DNA of 64,000 nt from assembly GCF_001677475.2 (NCBI RefSeq), contig NZ_CP015229.1, one strand, 5' to 3'. A program made the position numbers and the translations under genes. Positions 55,264 to 61,622 of this stretch are shown piece after piece. Position 1 is the stretch's first letter. Each line of letters opens with the position of its first letter. This DNA is from Escherichia coli. GTDB taxonomy: Bacteria; Pseudomonadota; Gammaproteobacteria; Enterobacterales; Enterobacteriaceae. The notes below the pieces were generated by a model. That model did not search any database. It was not told where the DNA came from and worked only from the letters and a program-made list of their open reading frames with translations.

Positions 55264-55663
55264 TTTTTCGGTACTACTAAGACTATTCGTTAATGATAAA
55301 CCCGCTTCGCTCAGAGAGCGCCGCAGGACATGAACTGAAACCTCATAAGATATTGCGAGAGTCAGACTGAAAATTATCTCAATACTCCAGCGGGTTTGGC
55401 AACTGAATAAATCACCCATCCCTCTGCATATCTGGTCGCTGCAAGCGCGCTGCCTTGCTACCACCGCTCTGGCGATAAATCACCGGGTAAGATTAGCGTA
55501 AAAAAGACAGCAAAATGCCGCCTGAATGATAAATCATCATCATGGAACGCAGGCAGCGAAGAGCACCAACTCTCAAATCGGTACTCCTTGTATGCTAAAT
55601 ACCTGCGCGCGTCAAATAGATGAAACACGTTCAGCGTAAAAACATTACCGCTTTTACGGCTGT

Positions 55664-56902
55664 TTACTCACTGGAAACCAGTCGTGGCGTGATAAACACC
55701 ACTAACTCGCGTCGTTCATCTTCTTTTCCGTCATGACGAAATAATTGCCCGAACCAGGGAATGTCGCCAAGCAACGGTACGCTATCCTGACCCGATTTAT
55801 TTTTACGGGTAAAAATGCCGCCCAGCGCCAACGTTTCTCCGCTTTTGACCTCGACCTGCGTTTCGATCTCCTGCTTATCAATCGCCAGCACTTCCCCATC
55901 AGCCTGCTGTAGCACCTGCCCCGGAACGTTCTGGCTGATGTGTAATTTCAGCCGGATGCGACCTTTATGTAACACCGTGGGCGTGACCTCCATCCCCAGG
56001 ACGGCCTCTTTAAATTCCACCGACGTCGCGCCACTTTCCCCGCTGGAAACCTGATATGGAATTTCGCTCCCCTGTTTAATGCTGGCAGGCTGAAGATGTG
56101 AGGCCAGCAGACGCGGACTGGCGATAATATCCAGCTGCTGTTTTTGTTCGAGCGCGGAAAGCTCAAGATCCAGCAAACGTCCGTTGATGCGTCCAATGTT
56201 AAAACCGACATGCGTTGTCGCCGTCGCTACGGAGAGGTCACTGCCAAGCGTGGTGACTTGCCCAACGCCACCAGCGTGTTGCGCATCAGCCAACGTCCAT
56301 TTCACGCCTAACTCACGCAAACTTTTTTCATTAATGGTGACAATATGCGCCGACAGCTCAACCTGCCCGACCGGCAGATCCATTTGCGCTACCCACTGTT
56401 CAAGCGCGCTTAACGCCGTTTTGTTATCTCGCAGCAAAAGGCGATTGGTGCGTTTATCGACGGTCATACTCCCTTTGGCACTCAGTAGCTTCTCCCCCGC
56501 TTTCGCCAGTTCTCCCGCGTCGGCGTATTGCAGGGTTATACTGCGATTTTCCAGCGGCAGATTTGCCTGCGCCCGCGCCTGCTCCGCCTCCTGACGGGCG
56601 ATATTGTCATTCTGCCAGGCAACGGAATGCACCGAGAGAATGTTGCCCTCCTGACGCGTTATCAGTCCGGCGCTTTTCACTACAGTTTGTAGTGCTTGCT
56701 TCCAGGGAACATCTGTTAGATGTAACGACACCGTACCGCTGACGTCTGGCGATACGACCAGGTTCAACTTCTCCTGTTCAGCCAGCGCCTGCAACACCTG
56801 AGCTACCGGAACGTCATCCACCATCAGCGTCACTTTTTGCGGCTTTGCCGCCTGTACGCCGGGTATCAGCATCAACAGTAGTGCGGCTATCCATTGCTTC
56901 AT
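55664..56902 (-). CDS. hofQ: Secretin-family outer-membrane channel (DNA-uptake / type IV pilus-like)
   Basis: 412-aa ORF with signal peptide and C-terminal secretin domain. Confidence 0.9.
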   Translation of the reverse strand: MKQWIAALLLMLIPGVQAAKPQKVTLMVDDVPVAQVLQALAEQEKLNLVVSPDVSGTVSLHLTDVPWKQALQTVVKSAGLITRQEGNILSVHSVAWQNDNIARQEAEQARAQANLPLENRSITLQYADAGELAKAGEKLLSAKGSMTVDKRTNRLLLRDNKTALSALEQWVAQMDLPVGQVELSAHIVTINEKSLRELGVKWTLADAQHAGGVGQVTTLGSDLSVATATTHVGFNIGRINGRLLDLELSALEQKQQLDIIASPRLLASHLQPASIKQGSEIPYQVSSGESGATSVEFKEAVLGMEVTPTVLHKGRIRLKLHISQNVPGQVLQQADGEVLAIDKQEIETQVEVKSGETLALGGIFTRKNKSGQDSVPLLGDIPWFGQLFRHDGKEDERRELVVFITPRLVSSE

Positions 56903-57218
56903 TTGTATCTCCTTGCCGTTGCCACAACCAGTGTGGCGGTTCGCAGTTTGTCCCGGTTCCCAGCGTTAGTGCGTCTGGCGTCAGCTGTAAGATCGTCCAG
57001 CCGTTTTCCAGCACATCGTTTTGCTGCACCCGTCGCCATTTTTTTTGCCCATCTTTTATTACACCGATGATGCGCTCGCCTCGCCCTACCATCCCCTGAT
57101 AGCGCCACTGGCTAAGTTCGCTAATCCGGCATAGATCTTCCGGCGGTTTAAAAGGGTCACGCATACCGGTTAAAAGGCACAATGCAATACCTGCCAACAA
57201 CCAGCGTTTAACCCTCAT
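56814..57218 (-). CDS. hofP: HofP (pilus-assembly-like lipoprotein)
   Basis: ORF 56814-57257; probable start MRVKRWLLAGIALC (134 aa); 3' end overlaps hofQ 5' end by ~89 nt. Confidence 0.75.
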   Translation of the reverse strand: MRVKRWLLAGIALCLLTGMRDPFKPPEDLCRISELSQWRYQGMVGRGERIIGVIKDGQKKWRRVQQNDVLENGWTILQLTPDALTLGTGTNCEPPHWLWQRQGDTNEAMDSRTTVDADTRRTGGKAAKSDADGG

Positions 57219-57648
57219 GCGGCGTCTCCAGTTGTAGCGTGAACAAAAGGTCATCACCTTCCACGCTTAACGAAAAACGGCTCACTCTGACGTTGCGCTC
57301 TGCCAGCCGTGTAAATGCCAACGGCACTGCTTCCCACAGCGTTTTCAACGCCAACTCGCCTCCCTGCGCGGATGGATGCCAGTAAACCAGTTGTGCGTCG
57401 GGCAACTGAAAATCCAGTGGCGAAAAGAGCAGCGTTTTTTCCTCGCTGAAGGGGGTGGAGTCAACCAGGCGATACAGTGCGGCCCACTGCTGGTGATGAC
57501 TTGCCCGTAGTCGAATTAATGCGTCGCTCTCTTCCTGGTGTGTCGATGACAGAAAAATGAGCGTAACTAACATCAGCAACCAGACTGCCCAGCAAAGCTG
57601 GCGGAGGCGGGGTGATGTGGCGAACCACCAGTCAAAGAGCATGTCCAT
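57208..57648 (-). CDS. hofO: HofO (PilO-like)
   Basis: 146-aa ORF with N-terminal TM helix. Confidence 0.75.
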   Translation of the reverse strand: MDMLFDWWFATSPRLRQLCWAVWLLMLVTLIFLSSTHQEESDALIRLRASHHQQWAALYRLVDSTPFSEEKTLLFSPLDFQLPDAQLVYWHPSAQGGELALKTLWEAVPLAFTRLAERNVRVSRFSLSVEGDDLLFTLQLETPHEG

Positions 57649-58171
57649 CGCTAACCTTCCTTGTTAACTGATACTCAAATTGCCAGCGTCCCTGCGCATC
57701 CTGCTGCGTGGCTCCCCTCTGATTGAGATGAAAAGATGCATCCTGGCGGAGTGACGTTTCTAGTGCGTTTAACGCGGTAATGCTTGTTGTCAGCCCCTTG
57801 ATCTCCAGCGTTCCCTGCTGCCAGCTTATCGTTGTCAGCCAGGCATGTTCGGGTAAAAGCGCCGCCAGTGCTTCCAGCGCAGATTGCCAGTCGCGGGTAA
57901 ATTCTCGCTGGCGCTGCCGTTGCAAACGCTGTTCGCGTAACTGCTGTTGCTCCAGCAAACGTGGTTTCGTTATCTGTAAGCTGTGGGCGAGTTGTTGTTC
58001 CGCCTGAAGCAAAACGGTGTTTACGCGTGCTTCGGCGTTGCTTGTCAGACGCAGTATTAGCGTTATCCCGACGGCCAGCAGCAGAGGTGCAACGAACATC
58101 AGCAACCAGAAACGAAGAAAAGCGGTCCGGCGTTGCTGTCGCCAGGGCAAAAAATTAATTGGCGGGTTCAT
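57632..58171 (-). CDS. hofN: HofN (PilN-like)
   Basis: 179-aa ORF with N-terminal TM and coiled coil. Confidence 0.75.
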   Translation of the reverse strand: MNPPINFLPWRQQRRTAFLRFWLLMFVAPLLLAVGITLILRLTSNAEARVNTVLLQAEQQLAHSLQITKPRLLEQQQLREQRLQRQRQREFTRDWQSALEALAALLPEHAWLTTISWQQGTLEIKGLTTSITALNALETSLRQDASFHLNQRGATQQDAQGRWQFEYQLTRKVSDGHAL

Positions 58172-58950
58172 CAGTACGCCTTCCCAAGCGCCAGCCCCAG
58201 CGCGATGGCAAAGTCTCCACCTGGCGGCGGTAGCGGCGGCTGACGAACAGAAACGGCCTCCCAGGGGTCAAATCCGCCTTCGCCACATATCGCGACGCTT
58301 TCGGGATCAACGGATAACGCTGCCGCCAGCTCCTTCGCGCTAGTCATCCCCACCGCCAGTTTGCGCCCCCAGCGATAGCGCGTCGCCCACAGCCACTGTT
58401 CGTTATCACGCCAGGCCAGACATTGCTGATGAGAAGGCAAAAAAGGCAGGAATCGCTGTAATGCACTGGCATCCGGGGTGATCGCGCTAACATGAACGCG
58501 CAACCTTTCTGCCAGAGTAAGCAGCATTGCCAGCTCTTTGCTTTGCGCGGCAGTCACGTTATAAGCGGGGCTGAGTGAGTCTTCGCTGTAATCGAAGCGC
58601 AGGGAGTCCGGATCCATATCCAGCTCGCGGGCCATCGTCCCGGACAGCCAGGCCGTTTGCTCCCTCTCACCAAGGGACAACGACGGGCGCGGAAATGACC
58701 GCTGTAATGTGCGACTGGCGGGAAACGCCAACATAATATGATGACGCTGCGGCAGTTCGCGACTCCACGGTAACAACGTGTTAGCCAGCCGCTGCACATC
58801 GACAATCCGCCCATCTTTGATAATGTCGTTCTCCAGTGGCAACCGCCACCAGCGTTGCAATAAGCATTCTTTTGCGCCCCGCACGATAGCAACCGCTACC
58901 GCTTCTTGCTGTTGTAAATGCAAACCAATTTGCCAGATCTTAAATGCCAT
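58171..58950 (-). CDS. hofM: HofM (PilM-like, actin-fold)
   Basis: ORF 58171-58977; probable start MAFKIWQIGLHLQQ (259 aa). Confidence 0.75.
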   Translation of the reverse strand: MAFKIWQIGLHLQQQEAVAVAIVRGAKECLLQRWWRLPLENDIIKDGRIVDVQRLANTLLPWSRELPQRHHIMLAFPASRTLQRSFPRPSLSLGEREQTAWLSGTMARELDMDPDSLRFDYSEDSLSPAYNVTAAQSKELAMLLTLAERLRVHVSAITPDASALQRFLPFLPSHQQCLAWRDNEQWLWATRYRWGRKLAVGMTSAKELAAALSVDPESVAICGEGGFDPWEAVSVRQPPLPPPGGDFAIALGLALGKAY

Positions 58951-59069
58951 TGTGATGATCTCCTTATCACCCGTCACTCTGACGGGTATATCAATGCGTC
59001 TGGCTTGCCTTTATACTACCGCGCGTTTGTTTATAAACTGCCCAAATGAAACTAAATGGGAAATTTCCA

Positions 59070-61622
59070 GTGAAGTTCGTAAAGTATTTTTTGATCCTTG
59101 CAGTCTGTTGCATTCTGCTGGGAGCAGGCTCGATTTATGGCCTATACCGCTACATCGAGCCACAACTGCCGGATGTGGCGACATTAAAAGATGTTCGCCT
59201 GCAAATTCCGATGCAGATTTACAGCGCCGATGGCGAGCTGATTGCTCAATACGGTGAGAAACGTCGTATTCCGGTTACGTTGGATCAAATCCCACCGGAG
59301 ATGGTGAAAGCCTTTATCGCGACGGAAGACAGCCGCTTCTACGAGCATCACGGCGTTGACCCGGTGGGGATCTTCCGTGCAGCAAGCGTGGCGCTGTTCT
59401 CCGGCCATGCGTCACAAGGGGCGAGTACCATTACCCAGCAGCTGGCGAGAAACTTCTTCCTCAGTCCAGAACGCACACTGATGCGTAAGATTAAGGAAGT
59501 CTTCCTCGCGATTCGCATTGAACAGTTGCTGACGAAAGACGAGATCCTCGAGCTTTATCTGAACAAGATTTACCTCGGTTACCGCGCCTATGGTGTTGGT
59601 GCTGCGGCACAAGTCTATTTCGGTAAAACGGTCGACCAACTGACGCTGAACGAAATGGCGGTGATAGCCGGGCTGCCGAAAGCGCCTTCCACCTTCAACC
59701 CGCTCTACTCGATGGATCGTGCCGTCGCGCGGCGTAACGTCGTGCTGTCGCGGATGCTGGATGAAGGGTATATCACCCAACAACAGTTCGATCAGACACG
59801 CACTGAGGCGATTAACGCTAACTATCACGCGCCGGAGATTGCTTTCTCTGCGCCGTACCTGAGCGAAATGGTGCGCCAGGAGATGTATAACCGTTATGGC
59901 GAAAGTGCCTATGAAGACGGTTATCGCATTTACACCACCATCACCCGCAAAGTGCAGCAGGCCGCACAGCAGGCGGTACGTAATAACGTGCTGGACTACG
60001 ACATGCGCCACGGCTATCGCGGCCCGGCAAATGTGCTGTGGAAAGTGGGCGAGTCGGCGTGGGATAACAACAAGATTACCGATACGCTGAAGGCGCTGCC
60101 GACTTATGGTCCGCTGCTGCCTGCCGCAGTCACCAGCGCCAATCCTCAGCAAGCGACGGCGATGCTGGCGGACGGGTCGACCGTCGCATTGAGCATGGAA
60201 GGCGTTCGCTGGGCGCGTCCTTACCGTTCGGATACTCAGCAGGGACCGACACCGCGTAAAGTGACCGATGTTCTGCAAACGGGTCAGCAAATCTGGGTTC
60301 GTCAGGTTGGCGATACATGGTGGCTGGCACAAGTGCCGGAAGTGAACTCGGCGCTGGTGTCGATCAATCCGCAAAATGGTGCCGTTATGGCGCTGGTCGG
60401 TGGCTTTGATTTCAATCAGAGCAAGTTTAACCGCGCCACCCAGGCACTGCGTCAGGTGGGTTCCAACATCAAACCGTTCCTCTATACCGCGGCGATGGAT
60501 AAAGGTCTGACGCTGGCAAGTATGTTGAACGATGTGCCAATTTCCCGCTGGGATGCAGGTGCCGGTTCTGACTGGCAGCCGAAAAACTCGCCGCCACAAT
60601 ATGCTGGTCCAATTCGCTTACGTCAGGGGCTAGGTCAGTCGAAAAACGTGGTGATGGTACGCGCAATGCGGGCGATGGGCGTCGACTACGCTGCAGAATA
60701 TCTGCAACGCTTCGGCTTCCCGGCACAAAACATTGTCCACACCGAATCGCTGGCGCTGGGTTCAGCGTCCTTCACTCCAATGCAGGTGGCGCGCGGCTAC
60801 GCGGTCATGGCGAACGGCGGCTTCCTGGTGGACCCGTGGTTTATCAGCAAAATTGAAAACGATCAGGGCGGCGTGATTTTCGAAGCGAAACCGAAAGTAG
60901 CCTGCCCGGAATGCGATATTCCGGTGATTTACGGTGATACGCAGAAATCGAACGTGCTGGAAAATAACGATGTTGAAGATGTCGCTATCTCCCGCGAGCA
61001 GCAGAATGTTTCTGTACCAATGCCGCAGCTGGAGCAGGCAAATCAGGCGTTAGTGGCGAAGACTGGCGCGCAGGAGTACGCACCGCACGTCATCAACACT
61101 CCGCTGGCATTCCTGATTAAGAGTGCTTTGAACACCAATATCTTTGGTGAGCCAGGCTGGCAGGGTACCGGCTGGCGTGCAGGTCGTGATTTGCAGCGTC
61201 GCGATATCGGCGGGAAAACCGGTACCACTAACAGTTCGAAAGATGCGTGGTTCTCGGGTTACGGTCCGGGCGTTGTGACCTCGGTCTGGATTGGCTTTGA
61301 TGATCACCGTCGTAATCTCGGTCATACAACGGCTTCCGGAGCAATTAAAGATCAGATCTCAGGTTACGAAGGCGGTGCCAAGAGTGCCCAGCCTGCATGG
61401 GACGCTTATATGAAAGCCGTTCTTGAAGGTGTGCCGGAGCAGCCGTTGACGCCGCCACCGGGTATTGTGACGGTGAATATCGATCGCAGCACCGGGCAGT
61501 TAGCTAATGGTGGCAACAGCCGCGAAGAGTATTTCATCGAAGGTACGCAGCCGACACAACAGGCGGTGCACGAGGTGGGAACGACCATTATCGATAATGG
61601 CGAGGCACAGGAATTGTTCTGA
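59070..61622 (+). CDS. mrcA: Penicillin-binding protein 1A (bifunctional glycosyltransferase/transpeptidase)
   Basis: ORF track starts 59046; probable GTG start at 59070 (850 aa, MKFVKYFLILAVCC); GT51 motifs and SxxK transpeptidase motif. Confidence 0.95.
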   Translation: MKFVKYFLILAVCCILLGAGSIYGLYRYIEPQLPDVATLKDVRLQIPMQIYSADGELIAQYGEKRRIPVTLDQIPPEMVKAFIATEDSRFYEHHGVDPVGIFRAASVALFSGHASQGASTITQQLARNFFLSPERTLMRKIKEVFLAIRIEQLLTKDEILELYLNKIYLGYRAYGVGAAAQVYFGKTVDQLTLNEMAVIAGLPKAPSTFNPLYSMDRAVARRNVVLSRMLDEGYITQQQFDQTRTEAINANYHAPEIAFSAPYLSEMVRQEMYNRYGESAYEDGYRIYTTITRKVQQAAQQAVRNNVLDYDMRHGYRGPANVLWKVGESAWDNNKITDTLKALPTYGPLLPAAVTSANPQQATAMLADGSTVALSMEGVRWARPYRSDTQQGPTPRKVTDVLQTGQQIWVRQVGDTWWLAQVPEVNSALVSINPQNGAVMALVGGFDFNQSKFNRATQALRQVGSNIKPFLYTAAMDKGLTLASMLNDVPISRWDAGAGSDWQPKNSPPQYAGPIRLRQGLGQSKNVVMVRAMRAMGVDYAAEYLQRFGFPAQNIVHTESLALGSASFTPMQVARGYAVMANGGFLVDPWFISKIENDQGGVIFEAKPKVACPECDIPVIYGDTQKSNVLENNDVEDVAISREQQNVSVPMPQLEQANQALVAKTGAQEYAPHVINTPLAFLIKSALNTNIFGEPGWQGTGWRAGRDLQRRDIGGKTGTTNSSKDAWFSGYGPGVVTSVWIGFDDHRRNLGHTTASGAIKDQISGYEGGAKSAQPAWDAYMKAVLEGVPEQPLTPPPGIVTVNIDRSTGQLANGGNSREEYFIEGTQPTQQAVHEVGTTIIDNGEAQELF

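Follow-up and report, generated by a model that had tools for sequence, protein, structure and literature searches.

Overprinted dual-coding regions are well known in phages and viruses. A few bacterial cases have been claimed, long overlapping genes in P. aeruginosa being one example (PMC8850804), and in a survey of 338 genomes every co-directional overlap of more than 60 base pairs (bp) was a misannotation, the longest real one being that of holD-rimI, at 32–56 bp (PMC2478687). Here, we analyzed the junction between the DNA-uptake genes hofP and hofQ, the last two of the hofMNOPQ operon of Escherichia coli (positions 55664–58950, minus strand, of a window of 64,000 nucleotides (nt) from contig NZ_CP015229.1). 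The products of this operon were compared with the PilMNOPQ type IVa alignment subcomplex and secretin of Pseudomonas, Neisseria and Myxococcus, and with the orthologous comABCDE of Haemophilus influenzae.

The junction resembles the real overlap of the 338-genome survey in that it joins two functional genes on the same strand, is kept across enterobacterial genera and has a genus-specific length. It differs in being longer (mode 89, up to 140 nt), beyond the proposed 60-bp flag, and in carrying a two-frame codon signature. By the survey's own criteria of orthologue-consistent lengths and conservation, hofP/hofQ qualifies as real; the pair is missing from its supplementary lists (PMC2478687). 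Overprinted genes share with this junction one DNA stretch with two translated frames, in which one frame limits synonymous change in the gene read in the other. Unlike in overprinted genes, the hofP piece is a disordered C-terminal extension of an existing protein, with no new gene involved, and the constraint bears on composition (no Cys or aromatic residues), not on a specific sequence, while the length is passive. We consider it likely that hofP/hofQ is a bona fide long same-strand dual-coding region, both frames of which are translated and the length of which is passive.

At the protein level, HofP differs from PilP in being short (134 amino acids, aa), in forming its own family (PF10748) and in having a C-terminal tail whose coding sequence lies within hofQ. 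In alignments A1–A3, the N-terminal cysteine of HofP is not conserved, which argues against a lipobox. HofQ, which matches PilQ chains of the PDB at E = 6e-75, lacks the long N-terminal AMIN region of PilQ: from its residue 23, it aligns to V. cholerae PilQ (6w6m) only from chain residue 158. Unlike PilM, E. coli HofM has no PilM_2 match.

Conservation of the hofP/hofQ overlap

The coding sequences of hofP and hofQ overlap in different frames by exactly 89 nt (56902 − 56814 + 1), the value that a first-pass annotation of the window had given as approximate, and the A of the hofQ ATG occupies the second position of a hofP codon. The shared stretch encodes the HofQ signal peptide and the first N0 strand. 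An identical overlap is present in the K-12 RefSeq annotation (hofQ 3519465–3520703, hofP 3520615–3521019 in K-12 numbering) and likewise in another complete genome, and the overlapping part of hofP is as in K-12 at every base. The region was found in 5,425 of 5,426 complete E. coli genomes, at 95–99% identity and annotated as hofMNOPQ. The overlap is real, is already contained in the standard annotation and leaves the gene content unchanged. A search under hofP/hofQ, hofMNOPQ and yrfA-D, with incomplete coverage of the literature, found no published discussion of it.

Conservation was assessed in 78 Enterobacteriaceae species obtained by a genome scan with HofP alignment A4, the sampling being restricted to that family. 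The 66-sequence HofP alignment A3 was unusable for the scan, as it has no conserved stretch of 7–10 columns. For deeper lineages, eight contigs were looked up, six of which gave usable junctions.

The same layout and frame relation were observed in 75 of the 78 species, with overlaps of 35–140 nt, and all six distant lineages agreed. The overlap measured 89 nt in 30 species, 92 nt and 86 nt in nine each, 35–38 nt in seven (Kosakonia, Phytobacter), 98 nt in six, 80–83 nt in another six, 119–140 nt in five and 59 nt in three (Pseudocitrobacter). Two species, of lineages L059 and L076, showed a 4-nt overlap (ATGA) in a different frame. At the six distant loci, where mrcA, hofMNOPQ, aroK and aroB are syntenic, there was either an overlap of 59–92 nt or a stop in the spacer.

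A profile search of 1.8 billion representatives returned only 134 HofP relatives, mostly of 120–138 aa and with tails rich in Ala, Gly, Arg, Asp and Ser; in Escherichia, Salmonella and Citrobacter, HofP has 130–137 aa and an alignable tail. Gene lengths were consistent among orthologues, and the overlap was conserved across genera in one frame. It is this one-frame conservation over 75 species, together with the codon-choice signature inside the overlap, that is beyond chance. The pair is a conserved counter-example to the rule that co-directional overlaps above 60 bp are misannotations, and pipelines that trim such overlaps would damage correct annotation.

Some loci and alleles departed from this pattern. 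Aligned fragments and short open reading frames (ORFs) indicated an apparently disrupted hofQ in L007 (Citrobacter koseri NCTC10786) and L079 (Enterobacter sp. EA-1), which suggests lineage-specific decay of the secretin gene. Among the HofP sequences, P0001, an E. coli allele, carries some 27 residues twice through an internal duplication. P0003 and P0087 run from the HofP tail into the HofQ frame and are apparent frameshift fusions, probably sequencing or assembly errors.

Codon choice in the overlap

With the HofQ protein held fixed, the hofP-frame residues encoded in the overlap were compared with those expected from hofQ codon usage elsewhere. Cysteine was never encoded in the hofP frame (0 observed vs. 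103 expected), and tyrosine (7 vs. 56) and tryptophan (1 vs. 8) were almost absent, while serine from TCN codons was mildly reduced (42 vs. 77). At hofQ third positions in the overlap, T occurred 142 times vs. 361 expected, and A was in excess across species (457 vs. 297). When the 71 unique junctions were collapsed to 14–44 clusters, the probability of zero cysteines still ranged from 2e-8 to 3e-28.

This second-frame selection signature was confined to the overlap, and three kinds of control were normal. In hofQ codons 46–75, alternative-frame cysteine was observed 128 times vs. 124 expected and tyrosine 41 vs. 45; in the hydrophobic 5′ segments of hofN, hofO and hofP from the same loci, the values were 172 vs. 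192 and 130 vs. 134; and in the non-overlapped signal peptide of short-overlap lineages (162 codons), 10 vs. 8 and 0 vs. 3. Further, the signature ended at the hofP stop: each bin upstream of the stop contained no cysteine, and the first five codons past it contained 44 vs. 29.5 expected. Third-position T rose from 2 vs. 52.6 expected (bin −10 to −6) to 98 vs. 57.4 after the stop. Depletion of alternative-frame Pro and Ser was also seen in the controls (Pro 219 vs. 336), which indicates a generic codon-context bias and provides no evidence on HofP.

A frame-specific and residue-specific signature that ends at the stop is hard to explain otherwise, and therefore points to a hofP frame that is translated and selected. 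In vivo synthesis of the HofP tail, of about 30 residues, would thereby be shown on statistical grounds, and the previously undescribed part of the junction is demonstrably, as judged from codon counts, compositional purifying selection on an overprinted HofP tail. Synonymous choice in hofQ is skewed against codons that would put these residues into the hofP frame, Cys being wholly absent from it and Tyr and Trp nearly so. Two HofP cysteines are invariant in 66 of 66 family representatives; we infer that HofP is periplasmic and that the pair is probably joined by a disulfide. If the disordered tail carried another, flexible cysteine or sticky aromatics, this would presumably harm the protein.

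Several rare E. coli codons are also used for the hofQ signal peptide (two ATA, one CTA and one GTA), in keeping with avoidance of T-ending codons that would put Cys or Tyr in the HofP tail.

These data bear directly on whether the hofP 3′ extension is untranslated, or a recent stop loss of no evolutionary standing (category iii of published misannotations). Such an origin is very unlikely: the tail is alignable and HofP length is kept in the three genera named above, the same frame and a long overlap recur in 75 species and in distant lineages, and a Cys/Tyr exclusion that stops at the hofP stop cannot arise unless the frame is translated.

Start site of hofQ

The first-pass annotation had suggested that the true hofQ start might be a downstream codon, a suggestion not borne out here. 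The annotated ATG is preceded by AAGGAG and followed by a signal peptide, MKQWIAALLLMLIPGVQA, continuing with AK in the mature protein, with cleavage predicted after VQA from the AxA rule. A signal peptide was present at the equivalent site in the 75 intact loci, all starting with ATG save one GTG, and a Shine–Dalgarno (SD)-like core preceded the start in nearly all loci; the n-, h- and c-regions were equivalent in all 75 intact HofQ orthologues. Both the ribosome-binding site and the N-terminal function thus support this start independently.

The SD overlies HofP residue G103, which is invariant in alignment A4, and 60 unique junctions share the arrangement xAA GGA xxx xxx xAT G. The use of the hofQ SD as a conserved HofP glycine codon is, on this comparison, ancient within the HofP family, because the six distant syntenic loci share the hofP/hofQ frame relation.

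That the overlap is an annotation artefact, with hofQ truly starting downstream, would be in keeping with misplaced starts being the commonest cause of long same-strand overlaps, and in-frame candidates exist (TTG10, ATG11, ATG27 and GTG28). We nevertheless rate it as extremely unlikely. A secretin requires export, and only ATG 56902 is followed by a signal peptide; neither M11 nor M27/V28 is conserved, and starting there would leave the secretin without an export signal. In addition, the NCBIfam HofQ model (NF007851) aligned from residue 1, covering residues 1–412 of 412 at 854 bits, and the codon-choice signature extends from the ATG to the hofP stop, as predicted for two coding frames.

Stop-codon geometry and overlap length

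Given the frame relation, a hofP-frame stop consists of T at a hofQ third position followed by AA, AG or GA from the next hofQ codon. Only codons for Lys, Asn, Ser (AGY), Arg (AGR), Asp and Glu after a T-ending codon can therefore end hofP. The overlap runs long because the hydrophobic signal peptide is almost devoid of such dicodons (T-ending followed by K, N, S, R, D or E). In the first 30 codons of E. coli HofQ, the possible stop sites were only A19-K20 (59 nt), V28-D29 (86 nt) and D29-D30 (89 nt). When synonymous codons were resampled 100,000 times with the HofQ protein fixed, 89 nt was the commonest outcome (42%), the minimum possible was 59 nt, and the probability of an overlap of at least 89 nt was 0.64. 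The earlier description of the overlap as unusually long holds with respect to the published 60-bp limit, but length alone is not beyond chance, being reached in 64% of recodings.

The stop fell on the D-D, D-E or V-D dicodon of a VDD/VDE motif in 58 of 75 species. This conserved acidic motif lies within the first strand of the PilQ N0 region to be aligned, where mature HofQ begins aligning to PilQ. Avoidance of stops in the hofP frame was rejected (75 observed vs. 81.6 ± 6.6 expected over 319 stop-capable dicodons). Since stops are neither avoided nor favoured, the overlap length can be regarded as a passive by-product.

A mechanism consistent with these results starts from a hofQ ribosome-binding site embedded in the last conserved hofP codons, with no hofP stop before the hofQ ATG. 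A ribosome on hofP would then pass through the whole signal-peptide stretch and would usually end at VDD (GAT GAC giving TGA); stops would arise at the codon-usage rate, and the length would be passive and not selected. As a rule, where a downstream ATG lies at codon position 2 and is followed by a signal-peptide region, long overlaps are expected by-products at genes of exported proteins.

Translation of the junction

Termination 86 nt beyond a start codon is a poor geometry for reinitiation. At hofP/hofQ, the geometry of termination-reinitiation was not found, the end of the hofP stop being 89 nt into hofQ; the classic TGATG arrangement occurs in this operon only at hofM/hofN, and ATGA at hofP/hofQ only in L059 and L076. 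Structural masking of the hofQ ribosome-binding site was unsupported (z = −0.54), the SD being unpaired in the minimum free energy fold. Since 86 nt separate the hofQ start from the hofP stop further downstream, hofQ would most likely be initiated independently, at a strong, unstructured SD, instead of by termination-reinitiation.

We also weighed whether the overlap acts in translational control, with hofP ribosomes that sweep the hofQ start either occluding or opening it and so setting the HofP:HofQ ratio. The hofQ SD lies within the hofP coding sequence in every species, and all four junctions of the operon overlap (hofM/hofN by 1, hofN/hofO by 17, hofO/hofP by 11 and hofP/hofQ by 89 nt), suggesting coupled translation. 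Against this, the ribosome-binding site has no stable structure that would need unmasking, the termination geometry is poor, and the species differ widely in overlap length (4–140 nt), no selection on length being seen. Translational control of this kind appears rather improbable. Taken as a whole, the interpretation offered in the first-pass annotation was partly supported.

Programmed +1 frameshifting in the overlap, yielding a HofP-HofQ fusion, was a further alternative. The hofQ frame is indeed +1 relative to hofP, and P0003 and P0087 join the HofP tail to the HofQ frame. These two entries, however, have the appearance of frameshifts from sequencing or assembly, each in a single contig; inspection by eye revealed no slippery or prfB-like site that is conserved, +1 re-pairing is impossible at GGA TGA C, and the HofQ signal peptide would be buried in the fusion. 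Programmed frameshifting has next to no probability.

Role of the HofP tail

The HofP tail is predicted to be disordered and without structure, varies from about 10 to 45 residues between lineages and runs to the HofP C-terminus, ending in ...TGGKAAKSDADGG. It is absent from the two ATGA lineages, from L084 (TAG in the SD-ATG spacer) and from about 9 of the 66 representatives (about 14%). No conserved tail motif was found beyond the residues that the hofQ start forces (NEAMDS over ATG-AAG-CAA-TGG-ATA-GC). We infer that the tail is probably dispensable, harmless baggage.

A functional tail, for example a flexible tether to HofQ N0, HofO or peptidoglycan, with the overlap kept by selection, was considered as well. 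It would be in line with retention of the tail in most lineages, despite the many upstream codons that a single change would turn into a stop, and with a compositional bias beyond Cys and Tyr (Lys 119 observed vs. 50 expected, Asn 69 vs. 40, Glu 40 vs. 87). The homologous PilP and GspC-HR domains also bind secretin N0, as in the complex of GspC HR with GspD N0-N1 (PDB 3oss), which differs in coming from another secretion system (type II), at 16% identity, and in having no overlapped tail. This contrasts with the variable length of the tail, its loss in some lineages, the lack of stop avoidance, of predicted structure and of any motif other than the hofQ-forced residues, and we regard a functional module as unlikely. 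We give a similarly low probability to the junction being a maintained dual-coding module, in which the tail or its translation tunes the amount of secretin per HofP or tethers HofP to the N0 ring. If true, this would be a functional same-strand overlap far beyond the 60-bp bacterial limit and widespread in Enterobacterales.

Several points weigh against the explanation that both frames are translated, with a passive length and a dispensable tail. In 39 of 60 unique junctions, a single mutation would turn the spacer codon ahead of the ATG into a stop, yet 0 stops were seen there in Enterobacteriaceae, for a neutral expectation of about 1.6–3 events that is a rough, uncomputed estimate. This absence could reflect weak selection keeping the tail or the read-through, contradicting dispensable baggage. 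Third-position entropy at conserved four-fold overlap columns was only a little reduced, at 1.11 vs. 1.50 bits, an underpowered comparison of only 5 columns. As regards the codon test, the species are related, so that counts are non-independent and were corrected by coarse clustering only; expected values came from pooled hofQ codon usage; and the non-overlapped signal-peptide control was small, at 162 codons. No detection of both products under Sxy induction by ribosome profiling (Ribo-seq) or mass spectrometry was found in the searchable literature. Lastly, there is hardly any expression of the operon in laboratory culture (PMC1635313), in agreement with the poor expression stated in the first-pass annotation.

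Expression and regulation

yrfD (hofM) has been reported to have two predicted CRP-S sites, to give weak band shifts with CRP and to be induced 16-fold by Sxy (PMC1635313). The CRP-S pattern TGCGA-N6-TCGCA was not detected, at up to 2 mismatches, in the hofM-mrcA region 58951–59300. The published yrfD CRP-S band-shift primers map to 59101–59226, within the mrcA coding sequence and 150–275 nt upstream of the hofM ATG. The CRP-S sites must be degenerate, because no site with up to 2 mismatches was found between hofM and 59101–59226.

Whether E. coli makes use of its 'silent' competence genes is an old question, and the Cys/Tyr exclusion is relevant to it. The exclusion provides indirect evidence that synthesis and export of HofP are frequent enough in nature to be visible to selection.

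Organization of the operon

The operon consists of five co-directional minus-strand ORFs divergent from mrcA (plus strand), located where the first-pass annotation had placed them (Table 1). PilM/N/O/P-like proteins plus a secretin had also been proposed. The secretin, the PilN match and a PilP-like fold were confirmed; HofM itself has no PilM match, and distant orthologues of it at the same operon position (loci L082 and L085) are matched by PF11104 PilM_2. HofM had no Pfam or NCBIfam match (E ≤ 0.01 or 0.001), and HofN, HofO and HofP were also without an NCBIfam model. HofQ was matched by Pfam Secretin, Secretin_N and STN, and scored 448.5 bits with TIGR02515 IV_pilus_PilQ (cutoff 284). The operon hence has a PilQ-subfamily secretin as its last gene, together with probable inner-membrane proteins of the bitopic PilN/PilO type. 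The HofP core (approximately residues 36–103) is a PilP/GspC-HR-like β-sandwich with invariant C30 and C92.

Table 1. Location of the hofMNOPQ genes and of the elements of the hofP/hofQ junction.
Feature	Position	Strand	Description
hofM	58171–58950	−	259 aa; first operon gene; divergent PilM-like protein; RefSeq name hofM
hofN	57632–58171	−	179 aa; PilN-like; Pfam PF05137 PilN, E = 4.8e-10; 1-nt overlap with hofM (TGATG)
hofO	57208–57648	−	146 aa; Pfam PF25319 HofO (EspM-like domain), E = 6.4e-24; 17-nt overlap with hofN
hofP	56814–57218	−	134 aa; signal peptide, β-sandwich core, 31-residue disordered tail; 11-nt overlap with hofO
hofQ	55664–56902	−	412 aa; outer-membrane secretin, PilQ family; last operon gene
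Dual-coding overlap	56814–56902	−	Last 28 HofP residues and stop; HofQ residues 1–30 in the other frame
hofQ Shine–Dalgarno AAGGAG	56909–56914	−	6 nt before the ATG; its GGA is the HofP G103 codon
HofQ signal-peptide coding region	56849–56902	−	MKQWIAALLLMLIPGVQA, read from the translation
HofQ V28-D29-D30, GTG GAT GAC	56813–56821	−	hofP stop TGA (56814–56816) spans base 3 of the D29 codon and bases 1–2 of the D30 codon
Terminator-like hairpin, T-rich tail	55647–55660	−	Directly after the hofQ stop, ahead of aroK; consensus scan only

The hairpin following hofQ is the probable end of the operon. Across 55600–59050, the best of the 5,426 complete genomes was only 98.0% identical to the window, and the hofP-hofM part was 97.2% identical to K-12; for a core operon of the chromosome, the hofMNOPQ locus seems fairly polymorphic. 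The longest mrcA ORF begins at ATG 59046 (858 aa), and the K-12 annotation uses a GTG near 59070 (850 aa).

The hofM leader contains a perfect 8-bp inverted repeat (58969–58987, ACCCGTCA-CTC-TGACGGGT). On the mRNA strand, it would form a hairpin that ends just before GATAAGGAG-N7-ATG of hofM, and it could stabilise the leader, act in attenuation or be a palindrome to which a protein binds.

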